IMG/VR virus record: IMGVR_UViG_2778261276_000005
Coordinates: 1-15,970 of that record
Length of the DNA: 15,970 bases
Strand: one strand, 5' to 3'
Source: a virus
Lineage: Duplodnaviria; Heunggongvirae; Uroviricota; Caudoviricetes
In this document: piece after piece, positions 1 to 15,970 of the stretch
Numbering within the stretch: position 1 is the first letter of the stretch
How the letters are laid out: each line of letters opens with the position of its first letter
Position numbers and translations under genes: made by a program
The notes under the pieces: model-generated
What the model was told of the DNA's origin: nothing
Seen by the model: only the letters and a program-made list of their open reading frames with translations
Databases searched by the model: none

Positions 1-209
1 GTGGCGGCCTCAGTCCGGAACAATTTGAAAACCAGAACCTCGCTTAGGCCTGTGTCCATATTACGTGGGTAGGATCAGTTATCCCTTCGTATCAATGACT
101 GACTCTTAAACGCAATGCTTTGGTTGCTGGCGTATCTGACAGCTTCTTCGGCGTGAAGGTCGTTGTGTAAGTATACTTCTTGGTTTATTTAGGCTATATA
201 AAACCATGA

Positions 210-1999: not shown

Positions 2000-3545
2000 A
2001 TAGTTCCCTCACTTTCATGCGAGTAATAATTTGTAGAAATTTATCAAGATTATCAAATCTATAGAGATCTAACCGAATGTTGTTTGTTTCCATCATACAC
2101 ATTTTACTATATTCGTTTTCAATCTTTGGTATGATATAAAAATCAAGAGGTGAAATATTTTGTGAATTCATTCGTATAACAATTGTTATGTCTGCTTTCT
2201 GTGAGTTATCAAACCGGACTTTCCATCTAAGTTTACCTGATTTCATATGTATGCATTTAGTAACAAGGACGGAAATTAAAAACTCATCATTGATGTAAAG
2301 CATTGGGTAATATTTATACTCGTCTATATGACAGTTACTTTTTAATATTTCGCCCTTAAAATCCTCAATTATCTCTGAGTAAAATGATCTTAGTGCTTCA
2401 TTTATTTGGAGATAGCTGTAATCATGTTCTGGCTTATAACCAATCAAAGTATATGCTCTTAAAAGACCACCAAATCGGGTTCTATAAACAGAAGATGAAG
2501 GGCCTGTATCATCTTCATCAATGATAAAGCCTGATAGTTTTCCATTAGATTCTAATTTTTCTTTTAGCTTTTCTAATAGATCTTCATTAGTCAAATGAAT
2601 GGATCGGAGCTGAATTATTTCTTGAGCTTTATTATATTTTTTCTTTGAAATAATTGGTTTATATGCCTTGTCACATCTAATCCATTCATGTTTGGGGTTT
2701 TTTACAAGCCTACTTTTTAGTTTAGATGAGGTTTTGTTATATATGTTGTTTCCAATATATTTTTCATTTGTCAAAATTTGATGTATTTTTGCACGAGTCC
2801 ATGATGTTCCATTTTCTGCAGGTATGCTCTGTTCATTTAATCTCTCAGCAATAATGAATTCTGGGACGTTACTATCTATAAAGAGATCATAGATTCTATT
2901 TACAATTTTTATTTCATTTTTTGGTCCCGGAATTAATATTACCCTATCTGTTTGAATACTCTTTCTTTTGCGGAAATTCAATATTTCTTTAGCTATGCCA
3001 TTTTCGTCTACTAAAAGACGTCTCAGCCCATAACCAGCCATACCGCCTTGATGATAACCAAGCTTTATTAAATTTACTTGCCCTATAAATACCTTTTCAG
3101 ATAGATTCCTGCTGTGATATGCAGCACTTGATCTTTTTATATTCAGTATAACAGAGGACTCTAAAGGGAAATCTTTAGTGGGTATAGGTTCGGAACAATA
3201 TATAAGATCTACACCATTTCTTTCAAATAGAAAGGAATAATATGCAGCTTCATCACTATTTTGAAAACGACCAAAACGGCTCACATCATAAAATAATACA
3301 GCCTGTATATCTATTTTCTTTTGTTCTACATCGCTAAGTAACTGCTGCAAAGAATGCCTGCCTACGATACTGACTCCGCTCTTACCTGCATCATCGTAGG
3401 TATAAGCGATTTCCATATTGTTCTTTTCAGCATAATCTTTGATATATTCAGACTGATTATGTAAAGAATATTGCTGATGGTCGGTAGACATCCTCAAGTA
3501 CTGTGCGACCCTAACTCTATGATTTTTTTCATTTCCGCTAGCCAT
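1989..3545 (-). CDS. Large serine recombinase (resolvase/invertase-type catalytic domain plus long C-terminal recombinase extension)
   Basis: N-terminal motif YLRMSTDHQ with the catalytic Ser, typical of serine recombinases; about 518 aa from the ATG at 3545 (the ORF track begins at a TTG at 3551); GAGG 8 nt upstream of that ATG. Confidence 0.85.
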   Translation of the reverse strand: MASGNEKNHRVRVAQYLRMSTDHQQYSLHNQSEYIKDYAEKNNMEIAYTYDDAGKSGVSIVGRHSLQQLLSDVEQKKIDIQAVLFYDVSRFGRFQNSDEAAYYSFLFERNGVDLIYCSEPIPTKDFPLESSVILNIKRSSAAYHSRNLSEKVFIGQVNLIKLGYHQGGMAGYGLRRLLVDENGIAKEILNFRKRKSIQTDRVILIPGPKNEIKIVNRIYDLFIDSNVPEFIIAERLNEQSIPAENGTSWTRAKIHQILTNEKYIGNNIYNKTSSKLKSRLVKNPKHEWIRCDKAYKPIISKKKYNKAQEIIQLRSIHLTNEDLLEKLKEKLESNGKLSGFIIDEDDTGPSSSVYRTRFGGLLRAYTLIGYKPEHDYSYLQINEALRSFYSEIIEDFKGEILKSNCHIDEYKYYPMLYINDEFLISVLVTKCIHMKSGKLRWKVRFDNSQKADITIVIRMNSQNISPLDFYIIPKIENEYSKMCMMETNNIRLDLYRFDNLDKFLQIITRMKVRELYAA

Positions 3546-3827
3546 GCACAAAACCTCATGGATGATTCAATACAATGTAGAGGATAAAATTGATCAAATT
3601 TTAACCGAATTCAACTGTTTTATCATTGATTAGAGCGAATTTGGTAGTTCTTCGAGGTGTATGATAATCGAGAAGAGATGTGAATTATTTAGCTGATATG
3701 ACCGACAGCTTTCGTTATGTGGCCTCAAGGTACCCATTTGTAAATGGCTATGCTTAGTCCACATAGGTTAATGGTGTGATCATTAATTCTTCAAATAAAT
3801 CAAGATAGTTAACCCATCATGGAAGAG

Positions 3828-5057
3828 TTATGCGGCAATAACTTTGTATTTTTGAGACGAAACATAGTCACTCCACCATTGCATGAGAACCACACGTTCT
3901 GTGAGATACTCTGCACGATTGTAGGCTGCAATTATTTCATCTTTTTTCGAGTGGGCAAGGGCGGCTTCTAAGACATCAGTTCTAAACTTGCCACACTCCT
4001 CAGCCGCCGTTCTAGCGATTGATCGCATACCATGAGCTACAAGCTCACCTCCGAAGCCCATACGGATTATAGCCGCATTAGCTGTTTGTTCATGCATGTG
4101 ATTGAGTGGAGCTTTGATACTGGGAAAAACCCACTCTCTATGCCCGCTGATGGCTTTCATTGAATCCAAGACTCGCAAAGATTCTTTGCTCAGTGGAACT
4201 TTGTGAGGCTTCTTCATTTTCATAAACTCCGCCGGGATGTTCCACATGCTGGTTTCTATATCAATATCTGACCATCTTGTGCGAACAGCTTCACCAGGGC
4301 GAACCCATGTGAGAAGTTGCCACTCAATCAGTAGCCTTGTTTCTAAACGGATAGAAGCATTGTTTAGAGCAACCAGGAAGCGGGGGAGTTCGGAAGGGGG
4401 TAATGCTGGCATATTCTGTTTTTTTGGCTTGCTGAACCGTTGCCCCAGGTTGTCAGCCGGATTGAATTCTATGAGTTCTTCTGTTGCTGCATAGCGGAAA
4501 ATTTCATTCAGGCGGGATATGACGCGGCGAAGTGTTTCAAGGACACCTCGTTTTTCTATGGGGTCTAAATGCTGTTTAAGCATTTTAGGGCGAATCTCCT
4601 TAATGGGGGTATCACCCAACGTTGGAAAGATATTTCTCTCTAGGCTTCGCCAGATGTCGTTAGCATGATCCTGGGAGATGCCTGACGTTTTGACTTTCTC
4701 ATCAAGCCACTTCTTGGCTACTGCTTGAAATGTATGTTCCGTTGCATCCTTAAGGGCATTGGCTTTGTGGGTGTTATGAACTTGTGGGTCTATACCATTT
4801 GCAAGCAACGACAAGTACTCATCACGTAAAGCTCGTGCCTTCGCAAGTGTAAGGTGAGGATAGGTTCCTAAGCTCACCTTAGTTCGCTTTTTGGTCACAG
4901 GCACTGCATATCTGAAATACCAATTTTTCTTTCCTCCCTTCGCTAAGGGGGCGATTCGCAGGAGCAAACCATCGCCGTCAAAAAGGTTAACCTCTTTCTC
5001 GGCAGGTTTGGTGCTTTTGATTTCAGTGTCAGTGAGCTTCTTAGCGATTTTTGCCAT
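3828..5057 (-). CDS. P4-family tyrosine integrase
   Basis: Arm-binding N-terminus (KNWYFRY), C-terminal catalytic region with HGMRSIARTAAEE ... LAHS ... AYNRAEY (R/H/Y catalytic residues); the ORF track extends to 5201, but the ATG at 5057 (MAKIAKKL...) has a GAGGG ribosome-binding site 8 nt upstream, giving about 410 aa. Confidence 0.9.
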   Translation of the reverse strand: MAKIAKKLTDTEIKSTKPAEKEVNLFDGDGLLLRIAPLAKGGKKNWYFRYAVPVTKKRTKVSLGTYPHLTLAKARALRDEYLSLLANGIDPQVHNTHKANALKDATEHTFQAVAKKWLDEKVKTSGISQDHANDIWRSLERNIFPTLGDTPIKEIRPKMLKQHLDPIEKRGVLETLRRVISRLNEIFRYAATEELIEFNPADNLGQRFSKPKKQNMPALPPSELPRFLVALNNASIRLETRLLIEWQLLTWVRPGEAVRTRWSDIDIETSMWNIPAEFMKMKKPHKVPLSKESLRVLDSMKAISGHREWVFPSIKAPLNHMHEQTANAAIIRMGFGGELVAHGMRSIARTAAEECGKFRTDVLEAALAHSKKDEIIAAYNRAEYLTERVVLMQWWSDYVSSQKYKVIAA

Positions 5058-5100
5058 GTTTGGGACCCTCATGTTTTGGACCCTTTGTGTTGGGTCCCAA
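5058..5100 (-). promoter_or_regulatory. Cluster of GGGACCC-type repeats just upstream of the integrase start (possible regulator or integrase binding sites)
   Basis: GTTTGGGACCC (5058-5068), GTTTTGGACCC (5073-5083) and the inverted copy TTGGGTCCC (5090-5098) within 45 bp. Confidence 0.3.
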
Positions 5101-5155
5101 AAAGGGTGCCATAACGAGTAGATTCTAGCAATTCTCGGTAGACTACTATAGACGT

Positions 5156-5189
5156 AAAAAAGCCCGCAAGGCTGGTTCCATGCGGGCTT
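5156..5189 (-). terminator. Rho-independent terminator, minus strand, just downstream of the ssrA 3'-end fragment
   Basis: Perfect 9-bp inverted repeat AAGCCCGCA / TGCGGGCTT (5160-5168 / 5181-5189) followed on the minus strand by a run of T (plus-strand A run 5156-5161). Confidence 0.6.
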
Positions 5190-5223
5190 GATAGACTTCA
5201 CTGAACTTCAATATATCAAAAAT

Positions 5224-5254
5224 TGGTGGAGCTGGCGGGAGTTGAACCCGCGTC
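5224..5254 (-). repeat. ssrA: 31-nt fragment identical to the 3' end of tmRNA (ssrA); attachment-site repeat, not a complete gene
   Basis: Minus-strand sequence GACGCGGGTTCAACTCCCGCCAGCTCCACCA matches the acceptor/T-arm 3' terminus of enterobacterial tmRNA as I recall it; similarity stops abruptly at 5255 and no tmRNA body follows. Confidence 0.8.
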
Positions 5255-5379
5255 AAAATTTATATAATCTTTTGTAAAATATACGTTTTTTCTATTGTTT
5301 TTGATCCGCGTATACTTCGCGTACACTTTGCCATTTGAACTTAAACATGCTGCCGTCGCTACATCATGACATGTTATTT

Positions 5380-6081
5380 TTACTTCTCATTTTCAAAGTC
5401 ATCACGAATGTTAATTAGATCTGTAATCAAAGCGCCAACTTTAGTTGAAGGATTTATCGAACCGTCTTTTTTGGCGGCATCTTCGACTCTTTTAGCATTG
5501 ATTAATGCCGTATCGAGCCGATCTTGCAATTTATTAAATACACCTGATGCCTTTTTCTCATAATCTGGCATGTATTTTTTTAACTCAGCTAGCATTTGTG
5601 CGCCTTCACTTTTGCCTTTCTGAGGTGAAAATGATTTTCGGGGGTATCCAAAATGTAGTATCAGCCAGTACTCGAAACATGGTATGGAAGTTATAGCAAC
5701 AAAAATCCCTTTTGGATTTAAGGAATTAATCCTGCTAAGAGCTTCATCATAGTTAGGGTGAGCGTCTCTATCAAAGACACAATAAACCTTATCATAAGGG
5801 TCGCTCCTTTTTTTTTCCGTATTATATTTTTCTTTTGCCCAAGATACCACATTCATAGGGCTTGAGCCGCACTCTCCAGAAATCTCAACTATGCTTGCCG
5901 TGCTTATACGGCAATGTTTTATAAAATCTGTAAAATATGCGGGCTCAGTCTTCTCTCCCTCACAGACGATAAGAATTTTCTTCATTTGAGCTCGTGCTTT
6001 ACTAACTCGTTTGAATTCATTATTACGCCGAGCCTTTCTTTTTTTGAACAGATCTTCGCTTCCCATTAATATCTCTCCCAT
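5380..6081 (-). CDS. RloB-like (AbiLii-family, TOPRIM/OLD-type) protein
   Basis: Motifs ILIVCEGEKTEPAYF, VFDRDAH and CFEYWLILHF characteristic of the RloB family; overlaps the upstream ATPase gene by 16 nt; an alternative ATG at 6066 (TAATG overlap, GGAG 8 nt upstream) would give 228 aa. Confidence 0.7.
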   Translation of the reverse strand: MGEILMGSEDLFKKRKARRNNEFKRVSKARAQMKKILIVCEGEKTEPAYFTDFIKHCRISTASIVEISGECGSSPMNVVSWAKEKYNTEKKRSDPYDKVYCVFDRDAHPNYDEALSRINSLNPKGIFVAITSIPCFEYWLILHFGYPRKSFSPQKGKSEGAQMLAELKKYMPDYEKKASGVFNKLQDRLDTALINAKRVEDAAKKDGSINPSTKVGALITDLINIRDDFENEK

Positions 6082-7331
6082 TTCCCAATGAGTGGTAAAG
6101 CCCCATATCTACCGTCAAGATAAGAAGCTTCTAAATTCTCCCTTCCTTTTCTTGGACTAAAATCCGTAAGTGGGAAAAGATTTGTTTGCTTTGAATTGTC
6201 TTTTTCTACAAACCAAATCTGATCTCGTCTGAAAACATCTTGATTTAAAATAGACGTCTCATGAGTTGTAAAGATTAACTGGGCACCATTCTTATTGATA
6301 TTTTTATCGTGAAATAAACCTACAATAAACTCAACTAATTTGGGGTGTAAGTTATCATTTAATTCATCAATAAACAGGATGTTTCCTGTCTCGAGTGAAT
6401 GTGATAAGGGACCCGCGAAACTAAAGATTTTTCTAGTTCCATGCGATTCATCTTTTAAATCGAATGGAATTGGCTCTCCATCCTCATTATTATGAAGTGT
6501 TTTAATGACATATTCTTCCTTGCCTTGCATATTCTTAATCACTAGTTCCTTGATGGCTGCAGGCATATCATCAGGAAGAGCATTGGGATTGAATTTTTCT
6601 TTTGTTACATGAATGTCATCAATACCTACATCGGCAGCTTTTAAAAAATTGAGAATCTCATCTTTCTTATCATTTAAGCATTGCTTTGCACTGTAATCAC
6701 TATCCCAACCTGTTAATTCAGTAAATTTAACTTTGTAATAAAACCAATCGTATACAGGTTTTAGTTGTACACTGTTTAATTGTACCGCTGTAGAAAGAAA
6801 GAGCGCATTAGGCCTAGTTGATTTCAACCATGTTTGTTTTTCTCCTGTCAACGATGGCCCCAACTCCCATTCATGGGTTTGTTTTTCTTCATCCCATAGA
6901 CGTAAAAACCATTTTTGTGGTCTGCCTTTGGGGAATGCAAATAACCATTCGTCGTGAATAAAATCTTCTGTTGCAGAAAAACCATACTGGTATCTGATGC
7001 CTTCGGAAATAAAGTTAATTTCAAATTCAGATGGTTGATTAATCTTCTTTGAGTCTAGTCTAAAAGGCGTGATATCAAGTTTATCACCACTTTTATAACC
7101 TGTAGCAGACCGGACAATAAGTTCAGCCATAGTTGTAATAGCGTTAATAATGTTTGATTTTCCGGCAGCATTAGGGCCATAAATCACAGCACTTTTAAGC
7201 AATTCAAGAGATTTAGGTTCATCAATACTGAACAGATTATTAGGCAAATCGTTAAGTTTTGATGCAACTAAACTCAGTGTTTGTTTCTCTGAAATAGATT
7301 TATAGTTTTGTACTGTAAACTCAATCAACAT
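6066..7331 (-). CDS. AAA/ABC-type ATPase (AbiLi-like, AAA_21/AAA_15-type)
   Basis: Walker A GPNAAGKS near the N-terminus, Walker B LFIDELNDNLH near the C-terminus, 421 aa; AT-rich; first gene of a two-gene operon. Confidence 0.75.
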   Translation of the reverse strand: MLIEFTVQNYKSISEKQTLSLVASKLNDLPNNLFSIDEPKSLELLKSAVIYGPNAAGKSNIINAITTMAELIVRSATGYKSGDKLDITPFRLDSKKINQPSEFEINFISEGIRYQYGFSATEDFIHDEWLFAFPKGRPQKWFLRLWDEEKQTHEWELGPSLTGEKQTWLKSTRPNALFLSTAVQLNSVQLKPVYDWFYYKVKFTELTGWDSDYSAKQCLNDKKDEILNFLKAADVGIDDIHVTKEKFNPNALPDDMPAAIKELVIKNMQGKEEYVIKTLHNNEDGEPIPFDLKDESHGTRKIFSFAGPLSHSLETGNILFIDELNDNLHPKLVEFIVGLFHDKNINKNGAQLIFTTHETSILNQDVFRRDQIWFVEKDNSKQTNLFPLTDFSPRKGRENLEASYLDGRYGALPLIGKWERY

Positions 7332-7521
7332 AATTTATACCCTTTTAACTTCCCATAGCTTAAAAACCACTAAAAGTGATTTTATAGCACAAATTTGACA
7401 AAAAACGTCAAATCTTTGCATTTAATGCACACTAAAACCATTGTACACTATCCTCATCATCCTGCTAACATTCTTGTAAGCTTTACTGTTTTGCGAAGGG
7501 GGGCTAGTGCTATCGGGCGTT

Positions 7522-8718
7522 TTACTTCTCAATTTTCATGTTCTCCGGATTTTTTGATACTTGGTCCTTACAAGCTGTCTTGCCATCATAGTCTACGAGA
7601 TACGAACCATAATGCCTGAAAAGCATTTCCGGCCCTTTATGCCCCATTTGAGCTGCAAGCCAAAACAGATTTGCTCCTCGGCTGATATGGCTGGTGGCGA
7701 ATGTATGCCTAGTTTGATATGGATTTCTGTATCGAATACCTGCTTTCCGTAATGTTGGCACCCATGCTTTTTTCCTGATTGCATCAGCACTTGCCCAAGG
7801 CTTATTGGTCTTTGGGTCTTCAAAGACAGTAGCATCCTTCATGAATGTAAATGGCTTCTGATTTATCAGCGCCAACATTGCCTCTTCTGTCAGTTCAACT
7901 TTACGAGTACCTGCTTTTGTCTTTGTCCCTTTGATAACACCGACAACACTTGCGCTCTGGACATGGGCAGTTTTTCCAACAAAGTCGATATCACGCCATC
8001 GAAGGGCACATAATTCAGAACTACGCAGGCCTGTATGTATAGCGAACCGGAACAGATTCTCCCATTGTTTGTTTCCGGCTGCTGCTAGTAATGCATCAAC
8101 TTCTGTTGGTGATAGCGGATCAACCACGTAGCTGCTTTCTACTTCTGACTTATCACTTTGGTAGCGCGAAGCAGTTACCAACGATACGGGGTTAATTTGA
8201 AGTACCCCATCGGTTACGGCTTCATCAAGTGCTGACCGCAGGAAAGATAACTGGTTGCGAATTGTTTTTAAGGTCGTTTTCTGGCTTTGAATCCACGCTT
8301 TCAGGATTGCTGGTGTTAATTCACTTGCAGGGCAAATGTGGAGTGAGGCTAACGCACTACGGCATTTTTTATAACCACCAATCGTAGATGGTGAAAGTTT
8401 TCTCGTTTCGCAGATTTCAAGGTATTCGTCCAGGTACATTTTTACCGTTTTGCCTGCAGCAGCATTACCAAAAATTTTCAAACGAGCAGAACGGGGAAAA
8501 TATTCCGCATAAATGAATGTTCCCCTTTCGATCTTATTATGAATTTCGCCGAGTGTGCGCTCGGCGTATTTAATGTTCTTTGGTGTTACTTCCAGATTGG
8601 AAAGTGGCTCACGACATTTAACTCCTTTGTAGGTGAAAGTTATATTGATCGTTTCTCCCTGACGGTGTTTTCTGATTGTTACGCCGCGCGGTAGTTTGAG
8701 CAGTTTTGTCTGGCCCAT
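7522..8718 (-). CDS. Lambda-family tyrosine integrase
   Basis: 398 aa; C-terminal catalytic region RHTFATSHISRGANLFWLAAQMGHKGPEMLFRHYGSY and a C-terminus ending ...KIEK as in lambda Int; GAGG ribosome-binding site 7 nt upstream; 5' end overlaps xis. Confidence 0.9.
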   Translation of the reverse strand: MGQTKLLKLPRGVTIRKHRQGETINITFTYKGVKCREPLSNLEVTPKNIKYAERTLGEIHNKIERGTFIYAEYFPRSARLKIFGNAAAGKTVKMYLDEYLEICETRKLSPSTIGGYKKCRSALASLHICPASELTPAILKAWIQSQKTTLKTIRNQLSFLRSALDEAVTDGVLQINPVSLVTASRYQSDKSEVESSYVVDPLSPTEVDALLAAAGNKQWENLFRFAIHTGLRSSELCALRWRDIDFVGKTAHVQSASVVGVIKGTKTKAGTRKVELTEEAMLALINQKPFTFMKDATVFEDPKTNKPWASADAIRKKAWVPTLRKAGIRYRNPYQTRHTFATSHISRGANLFWLAAQMGHKGPEMLFRHYGSYLVDYDGKTACKDQVSKNPENMKIEK

Positions 8719-8885
8719 TTTGCAACCTCACTAAGATCAATCCACCTCTCCTTAACGCCTTCAACCTTTAAAACCTGAACACCTTCACGCCAAACACCGC
8801 GCTGTACACGTTTGTTTATTGCTTCAGGAGTTTCGCCAGTTTCTTTGCAATAAGTTGAGATAGGAACGCAATCGAGGTTCAGCAT
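8679..8885 (-). CDS. Excisionase (Xis-like winged-helix DNA-binding protein)
   Basis: Small basic protein directly upstream of and overlapping int; W/R-rich pattern (VQRGVWREG...ERWIDLSEVAKW) like lambda Xis; ATG at 8885 has GGAG 6 nt upstream (the ORF track begins at a GTG at 8897). Confidence 0.65.
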   Translation of the reverse strand: MLNLDCVPISTYCKETGETPEAINKRVQRGVWREGVQVLKVEGVKERWIDLSEVAKWARQNCSNYRAA

Positions 8886-8944
8886 ATGTTTCTCCACTTA
8901 GCCCGCTGCACACGGGCAGTAATATCAAATTCCAGTCCTGATAA

Positions 8945-9160
8945 TTAATTTTGTTCTCTGGTTGCTACCTGTTTTATTGGCCTGATGCTGTCCAGGAGCA
9001 GACGGCGACGCATGTTTGGCGCACCCCAACGGTAACCAGTCTTTTTGTCGTAGGATTCACAACGTCCGGCAACCCAGGACGTTTCAGTGGAATGTAATTT
9101 CATCCGCTTTTCACCGTCTCGGGTGATAACAATTCCTGTATGAGTTTTTATCACGCTCAT
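8945..9160 (-). CDS. Hypothetical small phage protein
   Basis: 71-aa ORF; ATG overlaps the stop of the upstream gene (ATGA at 9157-9160), i.e. translationally coupled within the leftward operon. Confidence 0.45.
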   Translation of the reverse strand: MSVIKTHTGIVITRDGEKRMKLHSTETSWVAGRCESYDKKTGYRWGAPNMRRRLLLDSIRPIKQVATREQN

Positions 9161-9519
9161 TTCTTAGTCTCTGGTGCTTTCGGCATTACTGCCCAGTGAG
9201 TGATATTGACGTTTTCAAGGTCCCCGACCTGAAATGTCCACTGCCATTCTCCGGTTTCTTTTTGCCCCCATGTGTACCAGAGAGAACGCCAGCCAATCAG
9301 CCAGCCTTCTCCATTAGCATCAAATAACAGAACACTTTCATTTGCTGGCGGCAGTTCAGCTGACACTGGTATTACTTTGTTTTCCAGAGCCGCACATTTA
9401 GCTTCAAGCGCATCGAATTTACGTACCAGATACTCAGCATTTGTTTCATTCACTTTCAGATCTCGCGGTACACATTTCCCGCGAAGAACCCCTTCCATTT
9501 CGAAAACATTCATGCGCAT
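9157..9519 (-). CDS. Hypothetical phage protein (Trp-rich C-terminus; YfdS-like by size and position)
   Basis: 120-aa ORF; GGAG 8 nt upstream of the ATG; overlaps the stop of the upstream HD-domain gene by 10 nt. Confidence 0.55.
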   Translation of the reverse strand: MRMNVFEMEGVLRGKCVPRDLKVNETNAEYLVRKFDALEAKCAALENKVIPVSAELPPANESVLLFDANGEGWLIGWRSLWYTWGQKETGEWQWTFQVGDLENVNITHWAVMPKAPETKK

Positions 9520-10046
9520 TTGCGTAACTCCGATAATTCGTTAAAGCGTTCCATAAACATCCCGTAGGCATGGCCTGGAGCCAGTGGAATCACGTTGAAC
9601 ATCTCTGTTGCCGGGATACCTTCCAGCACAGGCCAGAAAGAGCCATCATCAAGCCCGAGATCGCGGCGTTCGGTTGCCAGCATGATGAGATCGGCATATT
9701 TCACGGGGGTACTCATAACCGGGGGTAACCCGTATTTCTCACGGATTACGGCGTCTATTTTTTCTTCCATCCGTTTATAGTCAGGAAGAAGGCGTTTCAG
9801 TGGCGCCGGGATGTCCTGGCAATACGCTTCTGTTGCATCATGCATTAACGCTTCAAAAGCAAATTCCTGCGGTACCAGTTGGCTGCAAAGCACCGCATGT
9901 TGGGCGACGCTGTAGAAATGTGAAAGATGTCCTGCAAAGCGACAGATATTTGAAAGAGAAACCGCGATATCGTTAATAACGATGTCGTCTTTATTTATCC
10001 TGTCATAATAAAAATGCTTCCCGGAAAAAGTTTTAATAAATGACAT
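9510..10046 (-). CDS. HD-domain metal-dependent phosphohydrolase (YfdR-like putative 5'-deoxynucleotidase)
   Basis: H...HD motif pattern (SVAQHAVLCSQL, LMHDATEAYCQDIP); the ORF track starts at a GTG at 10073, but the ATG at 10046 has GGAG 8 nt upstream and gives 178 aa. Confidence 0.75.
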   Translation of the reverse strand: MSFIKTFSGKHFYYDRINKDDIVINDIAVSLSNICRFAGHLSHFYSVAQHAVLCSQLVPQEFAFEALMHDATEAYCQDIPAPLKRLLPDYKRMEEKIDAVIREKYGLPPVMSTPVKYADLIMLATERRDLGLDDGSFWPVLEGIPATEMFNVIPLAPGHAYGMFMERFNELSELRKCA

Positions 10047-10139
10047 TTTGTTCTCCACGTATATGCGCTGCACCGCGCTGAATTCTGGTAAAAGGAAGCC
10101 CTCACCATCCGGCGATTATTGAGTCAATTACGTTTCCAT

Positions 10140-10161
10140 AAATGCCCCCGCAGGGGCATTT
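10140..10161 (-). terminator. Perfect stem-loop right after the stop of the upstream gene (weak terminator or stability hairpin)
   Basis: AAATGCCCC-CGCA-GGGGCATTT, 9-bp stem with a 4-nt loop, 13 nt downstream of the stop at 10174; only a short U-tract. Confidence 0.35.
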
Positions 10162-10173
10162 GCAGTAATGAAA

Positions 10174-10998
10174 TCAGGCGGTGAAAGTACCAATAAAGGT
10201 TTCTACTTTGCTGTCCTTGAATTTCTCAACAAGCAGATCACGAAATTCGTTAGCCATTTCTTCCTGCACTGCTTCCAGCTGAATAATGCGCAGAACCAGT
10301 ACAGGACGATCGCCAGTGATAATGCTGAGGCGTAATTTAAACGGACGTTCTTTCAGGCCTTCAAACGGAACGCATTTAAATTCAAATGCCACAGGCATAA
10401 TATCTTTGGTCTTCGCTTCGACAGACTCCATCAGGGAGCGTTTGCCGCTGAAGTCATTGTCTTCAAAATCAGCGGTCTGGTTTGCTTCAATCGTGATTTT
10501 ACGGACTGCCGCAGCCGCTTTTGTTGCCTGAATGGCATCACCATTAGCATCAAAGCCCACAAGGTAGTCGGCCCAGTCTTCGATCCATTCTGCCAGTGAC
10601 TTCTGGGAGTTACGCTCGCCGTTAACAGACAACAGAGCAGAGAACGGTGCTGTCTTTTTCAGTTTGAGAGTGGCAGTGTTATCTGCGTGACCTGGCTCAT
10701 CAATAGTACCCAGGTTAAGCACACTGACGGCACGCATATTATCGGCATCGATAAAGCAGCGGGTGCCTTCATCTGCAAGATCTTTAGAATAACGAGTAAA
10801 GTCATCGATGCTGGCAGTGGAAAGCGCACCACGGAAACGGAAACGATTTAAATTAAATTTTTCCAGATCATGAATGCGGAAATTCTCAGGCAATGCCACA
10901 GCATCGGCACCAATCTTACTGATAATTTCATTAACACCCTGAGCAGAAATAAGGGCATGGATTTGATTAATTGCGGTTGCGTCTAAGTTCTGAGACAT
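10174..10998 (-). CDS. Phage protein of unknown function (YfdQ-like, 274 aa)
   Basis: Long ORF with GAGGA ribosome-binding site 6 nt upstream of the ATG; size and neighbourhood match the yfdQ-type gene of KplE1/CPS-53-like prophages (from memory, unverified). Confidence 0.65.
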
Positions 10999-11063
10999 AA
11001 TAAGTCCTCACTATATAAAAATATTCAGTGATGAGAGAAATAATCAGTTTATTAAAAACGATA

Positions 11064-11426
11064 TTAATGACCTGCTGCGCGGAGTTTTCCGTCAGGTTCA
11101 CCGGCAAGAGTCAGTAATTGTCCCTGGTCTTCCTGCAGAATAGTCAGGCGACCACCGCGATTGACATACATCGGCGTTTCGGTGGTGTCTTCTTCGGAAA
11201 TTTTCCCGCGGTTAGTCGGGCGAACATATGAGAGTTTGTGTTTGATTTTCACACGGTTCTCATCAAATGGTTCGATTTCCAGGTTGAGTGAGACCTTACC
11301 TTTGGTTTTCGTGTTCATCACACCGGAAGCGACTTCACTGAGAACTGCGCCGATTTTTGTTTCAAATACGCCGCCGTCCAGCTCCCCGATAAATGCCTGC
11401 ACATCAGTACTGCGTTCGCTAGCCAT
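11064..11426 (-). CDS. Hypothetical phage protein, first gene of the leftward early operon
   Basis: ORF track gives 197 aa from 11657, but the N-terminal 77 codons run through the GC-rich hairpin region; the ATG at 11426 (MASERSTDV...) has GAGGAG 7 nt upstream and gives 120 aa. Confidence 0.55.
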   Translation of the reverse strand: MASERSTDVQAFIGELDGGVFETKIGAVLSEVASGVMNTKTKGKVSLNLEIEPFDENRVKIKHKLSYVRPTNRGKISEEDTTETPMYVNRGGRLTILQEDQGQLLTLAGEPDGKLRAAGH

Positions 11427-11562
11427 TTTGTTGCTCCTCATCATATCGACCCTGCAAGGCCGATTAGTTTCTCCACAAAACAGAGAAGAACACCTGCGGT
11501 GGCAGCCGCCCGGATGGATTGGGTTATGAGCCCGTCGTCCGGTGATGCTCTTCTCTGTTTTG

Positions 11563-11609
11563 TAAAAAGAGCGGTACCAGCCGGAAGCAAGTGTACAAAC
11601 TGGTACCGC
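11563..11609 (-). terminator. Strong intrinsic terminator on the minus strand inside the leader of the leftward operon
   Basis: Perfect 10-bp inverted repeat GCGGTACCAG / CTGGTACCGC (11571-11580 / 11600-11609) followed on the minus strand by TCTTTTTA. Confidence 0.6.
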
Positions 11610-12020
11610 CAAAGCAGTGGCTGTTGTGGTGGGGTTGTCACTCAGGCGTATGGTCAACCTGACAATCCGGTGTCCTCAACGGGGAAAGAGTAACCCCGCC
11701 ATACTTACCGCCGCGCCATTTCGCGGATGACCACAACGCTGAGAGCACTTAGCCAGTTACGGCACCACACTTTGTCGCGGCTCCATAAATGCCCTCATCG
11801 TTGCACCCTGGTCTCTTCCCAGGCGTCAAACCGGATCGCCACGCTGGTTAGGCGTCTTATCAGCATCATCATTGACTTGCACATTCCGGCTACCTGGTTT
11901 GTTTGCCCTAGCAAGGAGTGGATTGTCCCCTTTAACGTCCCCAGACCGCTAACGACGCATGTGCCATACGCCGTGTTACAACCAAATTTTGTTAGTACCT
12001 TGTTTGTTGGTCTGGAAAGA

Positions 12021-12049
12021 AAGATAAAATGAAATTGCGCGTTGTGCAA
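12021..12049 (-). promoter_or_regulatory. Candidate pL-like promoter for the leftward early operon
   Basis: Minus strand TTGCAC - 17 nt - TATCTT; the -35 overlaps a 15-bp TTGC-N7-GCAA operator-like palindrome. Confidence 0.4.
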
Positions 12050-12072
12050 GTGTTTTGTTGCGAGATATGCAA
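12035..12072. promoter_or_regulatory. Two operator-like palindromes (oL-like)
   Basis: TTGCGCGTTGTGCAA (12035-12049) and TTGCGAGATATGCAA (12058-12072) share the TTGC-N7-GCAA architecture with a site in the cI-cro intergenic region. Confidence 0.5.
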
Positions 12073-12082
12073 TTTAATGGGT

Positions 12083-12107
12083 AATGAAAAGCCACCTTCG
12101 GGTGGCT
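12083..12107 (-). terminator. Rho-independent terminator following the cI-like repressor gene
   Basis: Stem GCCACC-TTCG-GGTGGC (12091-12106) about 20 nt after the cI stop, followed on the minus strand by TTTTCATT. Confidence 0.65.
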
Positions 12108-12127
12108 AATTGATGAGGAGGTAAGGG

Positions 12128-12820
12128 TTAATTGTGTCGCTTAAGGGTTTGTGACTGGCTGATTAAGACCTTTCCAAAGACCATAAACCGGTGTTCATTT
12201 TCGCTGGTAATTCCCCATTCACGGTAAATCTGGTTATCAGAAATCACCAGTAGTTTGTCAGGTATCATTTGCAGTCGTTTGACATAAATTTTATCATCAA
12301 AACCAAATACATAGATACCATCTCCATCAAACTGATTGATACTGACATCAACGAAGATGAGATCTCCTGGCTCAATGGTTGGACACATACTGTCCCCACG
12401 AACGTTGATAACTTTAATGTGATTGGCTGGTCGTCCGCCAAACATCGATACAGCATTATCAGTTCTGTATTCAATGGCATGAATCACATCAATGACATCA
12501 CCGCCCTGGATAAGGCCATTTCCCGCACTGGCACTGACATCCAGCATTTCAATACGGAATACATCCTTCACCTGCGCAACATCCTCACTAATACTGTTTT
12601 TACATACAGTATTACTTTTGAAGTCTGAGGTAAAGAGATCAGCAATATCAACACCTAAGCTCCTGGCAATATTACTCAGGGCTTGTTCAGTGAATTGTTT
12701 CTGCTTACCTGTTTCCAGGCGTGAGATATTCGCCGCATCCACTCCTATTGCTTCAGCGAGATCGGCGATTTTCATGTTCTTCGCCTGGCGAAGTTGTCTG
12801 ACTCGATTTCCTATGTTCAT
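12128..12820 (-). CDS. cI-like prophage repressor (XRE-type HTH plus LexA-like S24 autopeptidase domain)
   Basis: N-terminal HTH (VRQLRQAKNMKIADLAEAIGVDAANISRLETGKQ), C-terminal GDSM ... VKRL Ser/Lys dyad pattern; divergent from a cro-like gene. Confidence 0.9.
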   Translation of the reverse strand: MNIGNRVRQLRQAKNMKIADLAEAIGVDAANISRLETGKQKQFTEQALSNIARSLGVDIADLFTSDFKSNTVCKNSISEDVAQVKDVFRIEMLDVSASAGNGLIQGGDVIDVIHAIEYRTDNAVSMFGGRPANHIKVINVRGDSMCPTIEPGDLIFVDVSINQFDGDGIYVFGFDDKIYVKRLQMIPDKLLVISDNQIYREWGITSENEHRFMVFGKVLISQSQTLKRHN

Positions 12821-12917
12821 GCGTTTATTACATTTCTTTATTGCGCGTTAAGCAAATCAACTTGCGCAAAATAGTTGCGTGAAATAATATGCTTATCACG
12901 CAATATGTGGAGGTTAT
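12821..12917. promoter_or_regulatory. Immunity-region control region: divergent pRM-like and pR-like promoters with operator-like sites
   Basis: Plus strand TTGCGC (12862-12867) - 17 nt - TAATAT (12885-12890) then GGAGG and the cro ATG; minus strand TTGCTT (12855-12850) - 17 nt - TGTAAT (12832-12827) ending 6 nt before the cI ATG; palindrome TTGCGCGTTAAGCAA (12841-12855) and inverted repeat TTGCGTGA-N13-TCACGCAA (12875-12903). Confidence 0.6.
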
Positions 12918-13178
12918 ATGCAATCACCATTACGGAATGTGCGTAAAGCGCACGGATTTACTTTGCAGCATGTTGCTGCGGGCGTTCAGGTCAATCCAGC
13001 GACGCTGAGTCGTATTGAAAGACTGGAACAAATTCCATCTATCGACCTTGCAGAACGTCTGGCCAATTTTTTTAAGGGTGAAATCAGCGAAATGCAGATT
13101 CTTTATCCGGCACGTTTTCAATCTAGCCAAAACCAGAATGGGTTTAAACCACAGGAACAGGAGGTAAGCCGTGGGTAA
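12918..13178 (+). CDS. Cro-like HTH regulator
   Basis: 86 aa; HTH FTLQHVAAGVQVNPATLSRIER; GGAGG ribosome-binding site; divergent from cI across the operator region. Confidence 0.75.
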   Translation: MQSPLRNVRKAHGFTLQHVAAGVQVNPATLSRIERLEQIPSIDLAERLANFFKGEISEMQILYPARFQSSQNQNGFKPQEQEVSRG

Positions 13179-13722
13179 GCATCACTGGAAAGTGGAAAAA
13201 CAGCCTGAGTGGTACGTGAAAGCTGTCAGAAAAACTATCGCGGCGTTGCCGGGGGGGTACGCTGAAGCTGCTGAGTGGCTGGATGTAACAGAGAACGCTT
13301 TATTCAACCGCCTTCGTGCAGATGGCGATCAGATTTTCCCGCTGGGATGGGCAATGATTTTACAGCGCGCTGCTGGCACTCACTACATTGCGGATGCTGT
13401 CGCACAGTCTGCTGGTGGGGTGTTTGTATCGCTTCCTGAAATTGAGGAAGTAGAGAACGCAGATATAAACCAGCGCCTGCTGGAAGTCATCGAACAGATC
13501 GGGAGTTACTCAAAGCAGATTCGTTCGGCAATCGAAGATGGGGTAGTGGAGCCACACGAGCAGACAGCAATTAATGATGAATTGTATCTGTCAATTTCGA
13601 AGCTCCAGGAGCATGCGGCACTGGTCTACAAAATTTTCTGCGCTCCAGAAAAGAGTGACGCCCGCGAGTGTGCAGCTCCGGGCGTCGTGGCGTTTTGTGT
13701 CTGTGGAGAAACTAACGCATGA
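13171..13722 (+). CDS. cII-like / phage regulatory protein (putative)
   Basis: 183 aa, GTG start with GGAGG 6 nt upstream, overlapping the cro stop by 8 nt; position and acidic, helix-rich sequence suggest a CII/CP76-type regulator, but the family assignment is uncertain. Confidence 0.5.
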   Translation: MGKHHWKVEKQPEWYVKAVRKTIAALPGGYAEAAEWLDVTENALFNRLRADGDQIFPLGWAMILQRAAGTHYIADAVAQSAGGVFVSLPEIEEVENADINQRLLEVIEQIGSYSKQIRSAIEDGVVEPHEQTAINDELYLSISKLQEHAALVYKIFCAPEKSDARECAAPGVVAFCVCGETNA

Positions 13723-14870
13723 ACAGTTTAACGGCAAATAACCGTTTGTCGCAACAGCTGGTGGTCAGTGTCGCTGCACACCTGTTGTTACGGCATGAAT
13801 GCAGATTACCAAATCACCTGGCTGTAAGTAACCACAGAGAACTTTACCTGACTGTGGGGGGCGAGTTGTGCAGGAACTTAACCGCTGGTTTCGTGACGGA
13901 AGAGGACTTTATGTTCATGTTATTCGTTGGGAGCCAGAAACACAGCGCGTTATCTATCTTCGCAAAGACTACCCGCATGAGTGCTTTAGTCCTTTGTGGA
14001 AATTCAGGCGTGATTTTGTTGAGTGTGAAGGACCACCAGCACATTGATTCTGCCATTCCGGGACGTTACACTGTTCAGGCACCTTATAAAACGGGTGCCG
14101 GGCGTGGAAACCCGGAATTCACCAAAGCGCACAACCGCGCTCTTGCGGTTTTTTTGTGTCATGAGCAGCATTACGCCCAAATTATGGTGGGGCGTGCAGG
14201 GCCAACTTCGGTTGGGCCGGGTTCTTTGGTGACCGGTATTTCCACCCCTGTACGTCTCACCACCAATAAGGTCGTGGAAAGCCTTGGTGGTGAGTTATTA
14301 AAAATCACCAAAGAGGCTGCCATCATGGCTACGATCCCAACCCTCACTCAACCTGAAATTGCCATCGTTGATGGTCAGGCTGTTACTTCATCTCTGGCTG
14401 TTGCCAACTTCTTCTCCAAACGTCATGACGATGTACTGAAAAAGATCCGCACGCTTGAATGCTCCGCATCATTCACTGCCCGCAATTTTTCGGTGAGTGA
14501 TTACACCGATTGCACAGGCCGCAAACTACCTTGCTATCAAATAACCCGCGACGGCTTTGCGTTTCTTGCTATGGGGTTCACGGGTAAACGTGCTGCCCAG
14601 TTCAAAGAGGCATACATCAATGCCTTTAACCAGATGGAGAAACAGCTTTCAAAGCCCGCTGTACCGAGCGACGTTGCACATAACGCCAGCGTTCTCTGTT
14701 CCTACATTTCATCAATTCATCAGGTCTGGCTGCAGCAGCTTTATCCTATGTTGGCAAAAGCCGAATCCCCGCTGGCTGTTAGCTTGTATGACTATATTAA
14801 TGATGCTTCGGCACTGGCCTGCCTCATAAATTTGTCACTGAACCCTTCAGAGGTAAGGGGGCGCAAATGA
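13719..14870 (+). CDS. Rha-family phage regulatory protein (Rha domain in the C-terminal half; N-terminal about 200 aa of unclear assignment)
   Basis: Frame open for 383 codons with ATG overlapping the upstream stop (ATGA at 13719-13722); Rha-type motif IAIVDGQAVTSSLAVANFFSKRHDDVLKKIRTL begins just after an internal ATG at 14325, which has AAGAGG 9 nt upstream and may be the true start. Confidence 0.55.
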   Translation: MNSLTANNRLSQQLVVSVAAHLLLRHECRLPNHLAVSNHRELYLTVGGELCRNLTAGFVTEEDFMFMLFVGSQKHSALSIFAKTTRMSALVLCGNSGVILLSVKDHQHIDSAIPGRYTVQAPYKTGAGRGNPEFTKAHNRALAVFLCHEQHYAQIMVGRAGPTSVGPGSLVTGISTPVRLTTNKVVESLGGELLKITKEAAIMATIPTLTQPEIAIVDGQAVTSSLAVANFFSKRHDDVLKKIRTLECSASFTARNFSVSDYTDCTGRKLPCYQITRDGFAFLAMGFTGKRAAQFKEAYINAFNQMEKQLSKPAVPSDVAHNASVLCSYISSIHQVWLQQLYPMLAKAESPLAVSLYDYINDASALACLINLSLNPSEVRGRK

Positions 14871-15091
14871 TCCGGAATATTTTCAAACGGTTTACCAATC
14901 ATACTTTCCGTTGTCCTCGTCCGGGTCAGTGGTACACCACGCCTGCAGGGCATGTTCTACGTGTTAGCCTGGTGGACCGTGAATGTCAGAAGGTGATTTG
15001 TGAACCGCTGGGCCGTAATTACCGCGTCAGTATGCCGCTTATAGCCTTTTGCTCCGGAAAAAACATGAAGCATCTCGGAGGTGCAGCATGA
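14867..15091 (+). CDS. Hypothetical small phage protein
   Basis: 74-aa ORF; ATGA overlap with the Rha stop at 14867-14870, and its own stop overlaps the next start (ATGA at 15088-15091). Confidence 0.45.
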   Translation: MIRNIFKRFTNHTFRCPRPGQWYTTPAGHVLRVSLVDRECQKVICEPLGRNYRVSMPLIAFCSGKNMKHLGGAA

Positions 15092-15894
15092 GTATGGAGC
15101 TGATGGTTAAAGCGATGAAAATTCGAGTGGGTAATCCATTACGAAAACTGGTTCTGATCAAGCTGGCTGATAATGCCAGCGATCAGGGTGAGTGCTGGCC
15201 CAGCTACCAGCATATTGCTGACCAGTGCGAGATTAGCAAACGTTCTGTGATGAATCATATTGCGGCCCTTTGTGAGTCCGGGCTGGTAAAAAAAGTCACC
15301 CGGAAAGGTGAAAAAGGTAACTCAAGTAATATCTATCTCCTTCATCTGGATGGTGCAGGAGATTCACTAGGGGGTAGTGCAAATAATTCACTATCTGGTG
15401 CAGCAAATTCACCAGGTAGTGCAGGAGTTGCACCAGGGGGTAGTGCAGGAGATTCACCCAGAACCAGTCACTCTTTTGAACCAGTCAATGAACCAATAGC
15501 TGTTGGTGCATCTGCTGATGAGTCTGTGCGAGTTCGTTCAAACCGACCGGAATACTCTCCGGAGTTTGAGCAGGCATGGCTGGCATACCCCAAACGTGCT
15601 GGTGGCAATTCAAAATCTGCAGCCTTCAAAGCCTGGAAAGCCCGTTTGAATGAGGGGGTAAAACCCGAAACCATGCTGGAAGGTGTGAAACGCTACGCGG
15701 GCTGGGTATCTGCGATGGCTAACAGCGGAACACAATTTGTGAAACAGGCTGTCACGTTCTTTGGTCCGGATCGTCATTTCGAAGAATCCTGGGAAGTTCC
15801 TGCGGTATCTGCAGCCAGACGCGAGGACCCGTACTTCAAAGCCAGTTACGACAACGTGGACTACAGCCAGATCCCGGCAGGATTCAGGGGGTAA
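15088..15894 (+). CDS. Replication initiator, lambda O-like (N-terminal HTH, low-complexity linker, C-terminal domain)
   Basis: HTH region LRKLVLIKLADNASDQGECWPSYQHIADQCEISKRSVMNHIAAL; start ATG at 15088 has GGAGG upstream (the ORF track starts at 15049); contains in-frame direct repeats at 15354-15467. Confidence 0.7.
   Translation: MSMELMVKAMKIRVGNPLRKLVLIKLADNASDQGECWPSYQHIADQCEISKRSVMNHIAALCESGLVKKVTRKGEKGNSSNIYLLHLDGAGDSLGGSANNSLSGAANSPGSAGVAPGGSAGDSPRTSHSFEPVNEPIAVGASADESVRVRSNRPEYSPEFEQAWLAYPKRAGGNSKSAAFKAWKARLNEGVKPETMLEGVKRYAGWVSAMANSGTQFVKQAVTFFGPDRHFEESWEVPAVSAARREDPYFKASYDNVDYSQIPAGFRG
15354..15467. repeat. Five tandem imperfect 21-24-bp direct repeats (iteron-like; candidate origin of replication inside the O-like gene)
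   Basis: TGCAGGAGATTCACTAGGGGGTAG / TGCAAATAATTCACTATCTGG / TGCAGCAAATTCACCAGGTAG / TGCAGGAGTTGCACCAGGGGGTAG / TGCAGGAGATTCACCCAGAACCAG; every unit length is a multiple of 3. Confidence 0.5.
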
Positions 15895-15896
15895 TC

Positions 15897-15970
15897 ATGA
15901 GTCTTTTGAATGAAGTTCAGAAATTCATTGAAGCCCATCCGGGGTGTACTTCCGGAGACATTGCGGATGC
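15897..15970 (+). CDS. 5' end of the next rightward gene (partial; possibly the replication partner of the O-like gene)
   Basis: ATG at 15897 preceded by GGGGG 5 nt upstream, directly after the O-like stop; encodes MSLLNEVQKFIEAHPGCTSGDIAD..., running off the window. Confidence 0.4.
   Translation, partial: MSLLNEVQKFIEAHPGCTSGDIAD

Follow-up and report, generated by a model that had tools for sequence, protein, structure and literature searches.

The DNA analyzed here (the window) is a stretch of 15,970 nucleotides (nt), positions 1 to 15,970 of IMG/VR record IMGVR_UViG_2778261276_000005, and represents a lambdoid prophage of Escherichia coli of the SfV / mEp460 / cdtI / CPS-53 type. PGAP annotation, taken from a genome with 100% identity (E. 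coli strain CH4797), leaves a gap of about 700 bp (11427-12127) between the stop codon of a cI-like repressor gene and the start of yfdP. We consider it probable (about 0.7) that this gap is the 5' leader of a repressor-controlled early-left operon, built of separately conserved, mobile RNA modules and transcribed as a polycistronic precursor that includes a dicF-type unit. The modules are non-coding, carry compensatory changes on the minus strand, and recur in other combinations in other phages, and two of them, module B and the hairpin that follows it, are homologous to the dicF locus of the Qin prophage of E. coli K-12. The dicF-type part is a variant of a known locus; module C, which appears to be an undescribed and widespread RNA family, is what makes the locus worth follow-up.

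An earlier note on this DNA had described the gap as non-coding, GC-rich, and highly structured, and all three properties were confirmed. PGAP annotates nothing in it, and no Pfam match was found; the GC fraction is 0.56 at 11450-11900 versus 0.39 to 0.50 in the flanks; and the 587-nt leader folds at -228.5 kcal/mol (z = -4.87), as good a value being reached by none of 100 shuffles, with a weaker fold on the opposite strand (-212.5 kcal/mol, z = -3.97). The open reading frames (ORFs) of the gap, which the note had judged not protein-like, number four (64 to 101 amino acids), none with a Pfam match. RNA folding of the minus-strand leader and a comparison with homologous prophages, both proposed in the note as checks, revealed significant structure and compensatory base changes in the RNA helices of that strand. 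Searches of Rfam, at the gathering threshold for the whole window and at permissive E-values for the gap, the hairpin, and module C, returned nothing relevant, and ARAGORN called no tRNA or transfer-messenger RNA in the window.

Module C stands at the 5' end of the leader as a predicted RNA of about 165 to 180 nt with two pseudoknots. An exact scan of viral contigs for its 16-mer yielded 108 unique sequences with 42 representatives at less than 93% identity, and a structure with pseudoknots was built by hand on 29 sequences. In this structure 98.1% of cells are paired and 10 pairs are changed on both sides; the observed level of covariation was reached by 0 of 500 shuffles, and slid controls were paired at 25 to 45%. 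A long-range helix obtained with RNAalifold alone was rejected, as it conflicts with hairpin H1, and the hand-built pseudoknotted structure was used because alignment columns 13 and 25 covary from G-C to A-U, which favors H1 over that helix. The loop of hairpin H5 (CACC or, in the window, AACC) pairs with GGUG, or in the window GGUU, farther downstream, and a pseudoknot predicted between the H1 loop (GGCAC) and GUGC shows no sequence variation in the alignment, so that it gives no covariation signal. Besides, G-U pairs are frequent on the minus strand of module C, and many of its unpaired bases are invariant. The 16-mer itself is near-invariant in a collection made with an independent pattern, in which about 12 of some 150 instances differ, by one base each, except for the diverged locus L237 (loci are cited by our own L numbers). 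Conservation and fold complexity of this kind are otherwise met in ribozymes and riboswitch aptamers.

A covariance model of module C, R1, found the copy in the window at 151 bits (E = 1.4e-42) and no other copy there. Rfam 15 gave chance-level matches only (E >= 0.5, 10 to 15 bits), the P1 copy being unmatched as well, and a text and exact-sequence search of a library of papers found no description of the element. Of 5426 complete E. coli genomes, 1833 contain module C; 554 of its places are on plasmids, and none of the matches listed carries an annotation of it. Among species genomes, R1 accepted 23 loci as true copies; they come from Escherichia, Citrobacter, Klebsiella, Enterobacter, Kosakonia, Phytobacter, Kluyvera, and related genera. 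Of the 56 pattern matches in species-genome contigs, about 33, outside the Enterobacteriaceae and in other phyla, were rejected by the model as due to chance. The top-scoring copy from a species genome (166.8 bits) is on a 1753-bp contig (L178, JAIIAN010000430.1) of a metagenome-assembled genome labelled Bacillota, most likely a mis-binned fragment of an enterobacterial phage.

GOLLD, ROOL, and rnaC and rnaD of T4 are phage-borne structured RNAs of unassigned function that typically lie beside or among tRNA genes and are co-transcribed with them. Module C is similar in this respect: a same-strand tRNA abuts it in 43 of 125 loci, with either tRNA-Ile2(CAU) ending just 5' of it, as in P1, or tRNA-Arg(UCU) starting just 3' of it, as in phiV10, and in phiV10-like phages it stands just before tRNA-Arg in a short operon that ends in this tRNA. 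It differs from GOLLD and ROOL, both of which are Rfam families, in lacking any sequence or model match to them, in being much smaller, and in occurring, as far as sampled, only in phages of Enterobacteriaceae. Module C is most likely released as a stable RNA that acts in trans. Tentatively, and with well under even confidence, we propose that it is a new class of phage RNA, shared by P1-like phage-plasmids, epsilon15/phiV10-like podoviruses, and many lambdoid prophages of Enterobacteriaceae, which would be released from punctuated "non-coding operons" and would act in trans on a component of the host or of its defense, whether as a ribozyme, a ligand- or protein-binding RNA, or a tRNA-linked decoy.

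The modular nature of the leader was revealed by a sensitive blastn comparison of the gap with phage genomes. Different blocks are shared with different phages: 11427-11631 with SfII, SfIV, and Stx2c phages, 11615-11737 with PPompW-type prophages, 11731-11974 with phiV10 and epsilon15-like podoviruses (82%), and 11810-11987 with P1, P7, D6, and RCS47 (78%). Furthermore, many phages match from inside yfdP up to 11993 only, that is, over the leader from module C on and without the promoter and operators. Wherever the context is annotated (the ban operon of P1, phiV10, and the 43 same-strand tRNA loci), the shared blocks lie on the transcribed strand, which is the minus strand of the window. The same parts also occur in other arrays. 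In L212 the order is P8 (a long hairpin), module C, P8, tRNA-Arg, and a DicF-like hairpin, and in L318 it is P8, tRNA-Arg, a DicF-like hairpin, and A2 (the long stem that precedes yfdP in the window); the tRNA-Arg(UCU) genes in these related phages (L212, 9380-9900; L318) are true tRNA genes at the position of module B. A DicF-like hairpin with a U-run (UGGCGGU...ACCGCCCUUUUU) follows at least 71 of 156 unique module C loci, at a median of 273 nt. On the evidence of these sequences, the leaders are non-coding arrays in which long hairpins and tRNAs would serve as punctuation.

The ban operon of P1 presents another arrangement: Pban, module B, a dicF-like terminator, tRNAs, tciABC, tRNA-Ile, module C, and ban. 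Module B and the terminator come just after the C1-controlled promoter Pban, with about 75% identity in module B, and the module C core (about 78% identity) lies on the transcribed strand, 1 to 2 nt after tRNA-Ile. In contrast to the window, the order of the two modules is reversed, and a distance of 2 kb, which includes tRNAs and tciABC, separates them; module C has no P8, and the ban ribosome-binding site comes next. The P1 record (NC_005856) annotates only the dicF-like part ("dicF-like region") and leaves the element between trnI and ban unannotated.

A further hairpin, GCCUG-AUGUGGYUAAAAG-CAGGC, which is absent from the window, stands directly 5' of module C or of a DicF-like unit elsewhere, in 56 of the 458 loci that were fetched from other phages (for example, L085 at 3137 and 4107, L191, L243, and L274). 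It sometimes occurs twice within 1 kb and may be an extra punctuation element or a nut-like site. The classification of what lies upstream of module C was made by regular expression and is too crude for counts.

The leader from P8 to A2 can be compared with dicF of Qin (RF00039) element by element. In Qin, the small RNA (sRNA) DicF is cut from the polycistronic dicBF transcript, with RNase III making the 5' end of a 190-nt form and RNase E then producing the 53-nt sRNA (PMC10448788, PMC5069750), and its 3' end arises by intrinsic termination or, in a 72-nt form, by RNase III (PMC5069750). Positions 11615-11737 of the window are 88.6% identical over 123 nt to a block of K-12 Qin that ends 9 nt before dicF, and by this identity module B is homologous to the body of the 190-nt DicF precursor. 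Module B is predicted to form a pseudoknot, in which GGCG..UAUGG pairs with CCAUACGCC and crosses the pairing of GGAUUGUCA with UGACAACCC. In an alignment of 17 sequences, some of them P1-like, pairing holds in 97.1% of cells and 4 pairs are changed on both sides, with slid controls at 30 to 48%. Neither module B nor module C is tRNA-like, as judged from ARAGORN, which made no call, and from the Rfam tRNA model, which found no match in the gap at E<=5.

Module B is set between two short flanking sequences that exactly complement each other on the minus strand, ACCACAAC (11623-11630) and GUUGUGGU (11730-11737, at the end of P8); in homologues with variant flanks (CUACAAC, CUGCAAC, and UCACAAC), the pairing is kept through G-U pairs. 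The same flank pairing region also contains CACAACA, the consensus target of the R1 seed of GcvB that was noted for the phage anti-sRNA AgvB (PMC4104026). In P8, most of 23 variants form stems of about 19 to 22 pairs with one mismatch, and several distinct sequence types are all paired. K-12 Qin has a hairpin of the same design (CAAC...GUUGUGG), and the point 190 nt back from the 3' end of dicF falls in its 3' arm. By analogy, P8 is probably the RNase III site that parts module C from module B. The P8 tip can in some cases hold a degenerate tRNA-like sequence (L100, about 3700-3800, ...GGTTCGATTCC...CGCACCCAC).

The perfect GC-rich hairpin with a U-run that had been noticed earlier (11563-11609) was recovered at 11564-11613 as GGCGGUACCAG, 19 nt, CUGGUACCGCU, and CUUUUU, with a folding energy of -21.2 kcal/mol (z = -4.7). 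Of the features of an intrinsic terminator it has a GC-rich stem of 11 to 13 bp and C plus U5 directly 3' of it, but its loop of 15 to 19 nt is not short; the consensus terminator scan did not call it because the loop is longer than 8 nt. The homologous hairpin of K-12 dicF is a documented terminator (PMC5069750). The base of the stem is common to both, UUUGGCGGUA(U/C)CAGUUU...CCGC(C/U)CUUUUU, which aligns UUUGGCGGUACCAG...CUGGUACCGCUCUUUUU of the window with UUUGGCGGUAUCAG...CUGCCGCCCUUUUU of K-12 and leaves UUUGGCGGUA.CAGUUU...CCGCC.UUUUU in common. Four variants of the hairpin fold at -20 to -23 kcal/mol (z of -4.2 to -7.4), and within this family the distal stems covary and the loops are very different. 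Partial termination at the hairpin, as at dicF in Qin, is likely by analogy. The earlier suggestion that the region might encode a structured small RNA ending at the terminator is supported by these results, which point to the hairpin as the putative 3' end of a DicF-family sRNA unit, lying as it does in a repressor-controlled early operon with a precursor body and a P8-type hairpin 5' of it.

Between the hairpin and yfdP stands A2, whose stem had been described as about 19 bp and imperfect (11475-11494 and 11541-11563); it is in fact a 20-bp helix with arms at 11544-11563 and 11475-11494. The whole element (120 nt) folds at -56.6 kcal/mol (z = -5.95). Its architecture returns in other phages with a wholly different stem sequence (L318 type) or with compensated changes (L094, L088), and four sequence types give similar folds for both A2 and the hairpin. 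Besides, the first ORF of the operon, be it yfdP or an unrelated gene, always follows A2 directly. An analogous long stem is found in K-12 directly after dicF and before dicB, and A2, by analogy, is probably the RNase III site that parts the sRNA from the yfdP mRNA. The likeness to Qin thus comprises a repressor-controlled early operon, the 123-nt block, an RNase III-site hairpin, the same terminator base, and a long stem next to it; the differences are that neither ydfABC upstream nor dicB downstream is present here and that module C precedes P8, where Qin has another sequence.

Downstream of the A2 stem, the unpaired motif GGAGAAACUAA resembles the ribosome-binding region of ftsZ, GGAGAGAAACUAUG, which DicF targets. 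Some DicF-like loops (e.g., that of L088, AGUUUUUUC) could pair with GGAGAAACUAA over 9 bp, and the motif may be a cis target or decoy for such loops. The invariance of GGAGAAACUAA is partly a matter of ascertainment, because the motif served as a search pattern.

At the upstream end of the leader, the candidate promoter that had been proposed at 12021-12049 on the minus strand is present (TTGCAC-N17-TATCTT) and overlaps the operator-like palindrome oL1. Exact TTGC-N7-GCAA sites number only four in the window (12035, 12058, 12841, and 14510), and at 13 of 15 positions oL1 agrees with the one at 12841, which lies between cI and cro. We consider it reasonable to read oL1 and oL2 as operators of the repressor because the other exact copies are only those at 12841 and 14510. 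The -10 element and the operators are conserved in mEp460; in L189, a phage whose operator region is different, a -10-like TATCTT precedes module C by about 10 nt. From the promoter sequence, the leader transcript would start near 12013, and the intrinsic terminator at 12087-12107 would shield it from read-through of the repressor transcript in the lysogen. The features of the locus are listed in Table 1.

Table 1. Features of the leader and of the neighboring genes in the window
Feature	Position	Strand	Basis or remark
yfdR-like gene	9510-10073	minus	PGAP/Pfam
yfdQ/DUF2303 gene	10174-10998	minus	PGAP/Pfam
yfdP, first protein-coding gene of the operon	11064-11426 (ATG at 11426)	minus	PGAP
Shine-Dalgarno GAGGAG and ATG of yfdP	11424-11439	minus	sequence; PGAP
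Unannotated gap	11427-12127		between yfdP start and repressor stop (12128); PGAP
Small hairpin UCGGCC-UUGCAG-GGUCGA	11446-11463	minus	stem compensated between phage types
Unpaired motif GGAGAAACUAA	11464-11474	minus	
A2 long stem, 20-bp helix, ACAAAACAGAGAAGAGCAUC paired with GGUGUUCUUCUCUGUUUUGU, closing a two-hairpin multiloop	11475-11563	minus	
DicF-like sRNA core and putative terminator hairpin, UUUGGCGGUACCAG, 19-nt loop, CUGGUACCGCU, then CUUUUU	11564-11613	minus	
Module B, pseudoknotted RNA, bracketed by GUUGUGGU and ACCACAAC	11623-11737	minus	
P8 long hairpin, GCAAC-GAUGAGGGCAUU...AGUGCUCUCAGC-GUUGUGG, variable tip	11731-11804	minus	
Module C core	11800-11980	minus	covariance model, hand-built structure
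Module C hairpin H7, CCUGG-GAAGAGA-CCAGG (loop GAAGAGA)	11807-11823	minus	
Module C hairpin H5	11841-11855	minus	loop forms pseudoknot with GGUU at about 11828-11831
Module C invariant stretch GGUAGCCGGAAUGUGCAAG	16-mer at 11879-11894	minus	
Module C long-range helix H2		minus	hand-built structure
Module C hairpin H1	11953-11973	minus	
Candidate pL-like promoter	-10 TATCTT 12021-12026, 17-nt spacer, -35 TTGCAC 12044-12049	minus	sequence
Operator-like palindromes TTGC-N7-GCAA	oL1 12035-12049, oL2 12058-12072	unstranded	exact-site scan
Intrinsic terminator of the repressor (cI-like) transcript, AGCCACC-CGAA-GGUGGCU then UUUU	12087-12107	minus	terminator scan
XRE/S24 repressor gene (cI-like)	12128-12820	minus	PGAP
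cro-like gene	12918-13178	plus	PGAP
CII-like ymfL, then Ash/Rha protein gene	downstream of cro-like gene	plus	PGAP/Pfam

These elements can be combined into a scheme of how the locus may work. Once the repressor leaves the two operators, leftward transcription would begin at about 12013 and pass in turn through the module C core, P8, module B, the DicF-like hairpin with its U-run, A2, and the yfdP ribosome-binding site. RNase III would cut the long stems P8 and A2, in analogy to Qin (PMC10448788, PMC5069750), and from the resulting 5'-monophosphate end RNase E would trim module B from the sRNA; in phages where tRNA-Arg(UCU) replaces module B, tRNA processing would do the same job. The hairpin and U-run would end a part of the transcripts and form the 3' end of the sRNA, and the remaining transcripts would read through into the yfdP-yfdQ-yfdR mRNA. 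Since it would terminate a part and let the rest pass, the hairpin would both make the sRNA and set the expression of the genes downstream. On this reading, the leader would not work as a mere attenuator.

Several observations weigh against this scheme or against parts of it. The pL-like promoter matches the consensus poorly, at only 7 of 12 positions, for which reason the promoter scan did not list it. The 19-nt loop of the hairpin is unusually long, which makes the efficiency of termination uncertain, and all processing sites as well as the termination are placed by homology with Qin. In P1, where no P8 follows module C and the ban ribosome-binding site comes directly after it, a role in cis is possible. 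The rest concern the kinship of the hairpin with DicF, which pairs through its 3' region and loop with the ribosome-binding site of ftsZ and through its 5' region with xylR and pykA (PMC5069750). The Rfam DicF model (RF00039) gave no match at the gathering threshold, at E<=5 in 951 nt, or at E<=10 in 121 nt around the hairpin (the "dicF-like region" of P1 is unmatched too), and the 5' part of DicF (UUUCUGGUGACG, the 5' third, with the xylR/pykA pairing region) is absent here. The loop, which differs in sequence from that of Qin, has weak and split complementarity to the ftsZ ribosome-binding site, consisting by eye of AGUUU and CUUCCG only, about 9 nt apart. The best RNAduplex pairing with the ftsZ leader has -24.5 kcal/mol versus a shuffled mean of -30.1, and K-12 DicF has -38.5; RNAduplex over-extends, and it gave no support for targeting of ftsZ. 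It is doubtful from the sequence that the DicF-like RNA still targets ftsZ. Because the 5' region is missing, the loop is different, and the duplex is unremarkable, we do not file the RNA as DicF proper, and Rfam agrees.

Three other explanations of the gap have to be weighed against a leader made of RNA modules. The first, small protein genes missed by annotation, we regard as very improbable. Hypothetical proteins are annotated at the gap in the mEp460 and cdtI records, on the plus strand, and two ORFs match PHROG families of no known function: ORF 11499-11693(+) matches phrog_3651 (E = 4.9e-38), and ORF 11441-11641(-) matches phrog_33599. Moreover, the plus-strand ORF is open in 41 of 53 close homologues. 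Yet the ORFs over 11441-11693 are interrupted in 12 (plus strand) and 37 of these 53, and the variability per codon position in the ORF frames tested (0.349/0.342/0.289 and 0.625/0.644/0.663) shows no excess at the third position, at which it is flat or lowest. All six frames of module C carry stops in at least half of the 42 representatives, and 98 of 119 indels in pairwise comparisons are not multiples of three. In addition, the changes seen are compensatory for RNA stems, with the A2 stem even swapped for unrelated sequence of the same fold, and the two PHROG families were probably built from spurious gene calls on conserved RNA-coding DNA. A conserved protein-coding gene in the gap, named in the earlier note as an outcome that would speak against its reading, gained no support from Pfam or from codon conservation. 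That the gap is mainly a cis-regulatory 5' untranslated region, in which A2, with its 20-bp stem, GGAGAAACUAA, and the small hairpin, sets the stability or translation of the first gene while the upstream modules are inert mosaic remnants, is less improbable but still unlikely. It would account for the constant place of A2 before the first ORF and for the mosaic boundaries between modules, and the small hairpin could bring GGAG near an in-frame AUGAUG at 11441-11446. However, if the modules were inert, their sequence would not have stayed near-invariant, with compensatory pairs preserved, in P1-like, epsilon15-like, and lambdoid phages from many genera, and the tRNA genes in the same arrays show that stretches of them are processed into stable RNAs.

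The third explanation, to which we give a slightly better chance though still a low one, is antitermination. HK022 put sites are about 70 nt long with two stem-loops, and one is found in each early operon. Module C could be a cis-acting antiterminator like HK022 put or the EAR element of Bacillus, which would replace N by making RNA polymerase resist the DicF-type and later terminators. Like putL and putR, it is a structured RNA close to an early promoter of a lambdoid phage without N and has a terminator downstream: it lies about 20 to 30 nt after the presumed pL start, and just after the -10-like element in L189, a terminator-like hairpin follows it in the at least 71 of 156 loci mentioned above, and its pseudoknots and invariant unpaired bases would be expected of an RNA that docks on a protein machine. 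The absence of an N-like arginine-rich ORF, pointed out in the earlier note, was confirmed. Nevertheless, module C is much larger than put (about 165 to 180 nt, with two pseudoknots) and has no putR-like partner, since R1 found no second copy in the 16-kb window, including pR and the 3 kb downstream of it. It also sits in places where antitermination makes no sense: in P1 its place is behind tRNA-Ile, some 2 kb past the dicF-like terminator, with ban next, and in phiV10-like phages it belongs to a short operon ending in tRNA-Arg. Besides, in Qin, where module C is absent, transcripts read through the same terminator into dicB. The sequence noted earlier as loosely boxA-like, CGCUCUUUUUACAA, consists of the terminator's U-tail and, directly after it, the first bases of the A2 stem (5' arm), and no boxB-like short hairpin of a lambda-type nut site follows it. 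With neither boxB, nor N, nor a second module C, and with the order reversed in P1, the proposal of a put-like or boxA-type processive antitermination gate was not upheld. The preferred reading is an array of RNA modules, probably processed, with a dicF-type unit.

Other known RNAs were considered for the gap and set aside. The sRNA svsR (PMC12803456) is located within the 3' end of cI, on the opposite strand; the Pas sRNAs (bioRxiv 2026.05.13.724894) and AgvB and AsxR (PMC4104026) belong to another locus, the late Q/moron region; and a genome-language-model preprint on non-coding elements does not cover module C. CPS-53 of K-12 (L182, 5248-5604) was dropped as a reference for the leader, which is lost there as a whole; it keeps yfdP, yfdQ, and yfdR and shares with the window only the last 19 nt before the yfdP start, the DNA upstream of these being unrelated and repeat-rich.

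Elsewhere in the window, on the plus strand, Rfam gave gathering-level matches to isrK (14079-14155, 67.9 bits) and C4 antisense RNA (14180-14267, 83.6 bits). Both sit inside ORF 13719-14870, annotated as a 383-amino-acid Rha-family protein, and overlap its Pfam Ash domain (amino acids 117 to 213, nt 14067-14357); either the annotated start of this ORF lies too far upstream, so that the frame runs over two RNA genes, or the same DNA encodes both RNA and protein. In the ban operon of P1 (L003), a sub-threshold Rfam match to STnc100 (33.4 bits, E = 6e-5) was found at 3996-4115 on the minus strand, between tciA and upl, where it adjoins the TerB-like tciA. The STnc100 and PasD sRNAs have been linked with TerB-containing prophage regions in a 2026 preprint.

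DicF is among the oldest known bacterial sRNAs and has been treated as a feature of defective prophages; in one study, about 2,000 phage genomes yielded no DicF (PMC5069750). Our results indicate that DicF-like units form a whole family in intact temperate phages, with loops that vary and targets that probably differ, and that they belong to arrays, probably processed, in which tRNAs and other structured RNAs also occur. They also caution that gene callers place spurious ORFs on leader DNA of this kind, two PHROG families matching such ORFs. Furthermore, an unannotated, highly conserved pseudoknotted RNA is present in P1 and in about one-third of complete E. coli genomes, which are among the best-studied systems. 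If module C acts in trans during early infection or induction, this function would be directly testable in P1 and in lambdoid lysogens.

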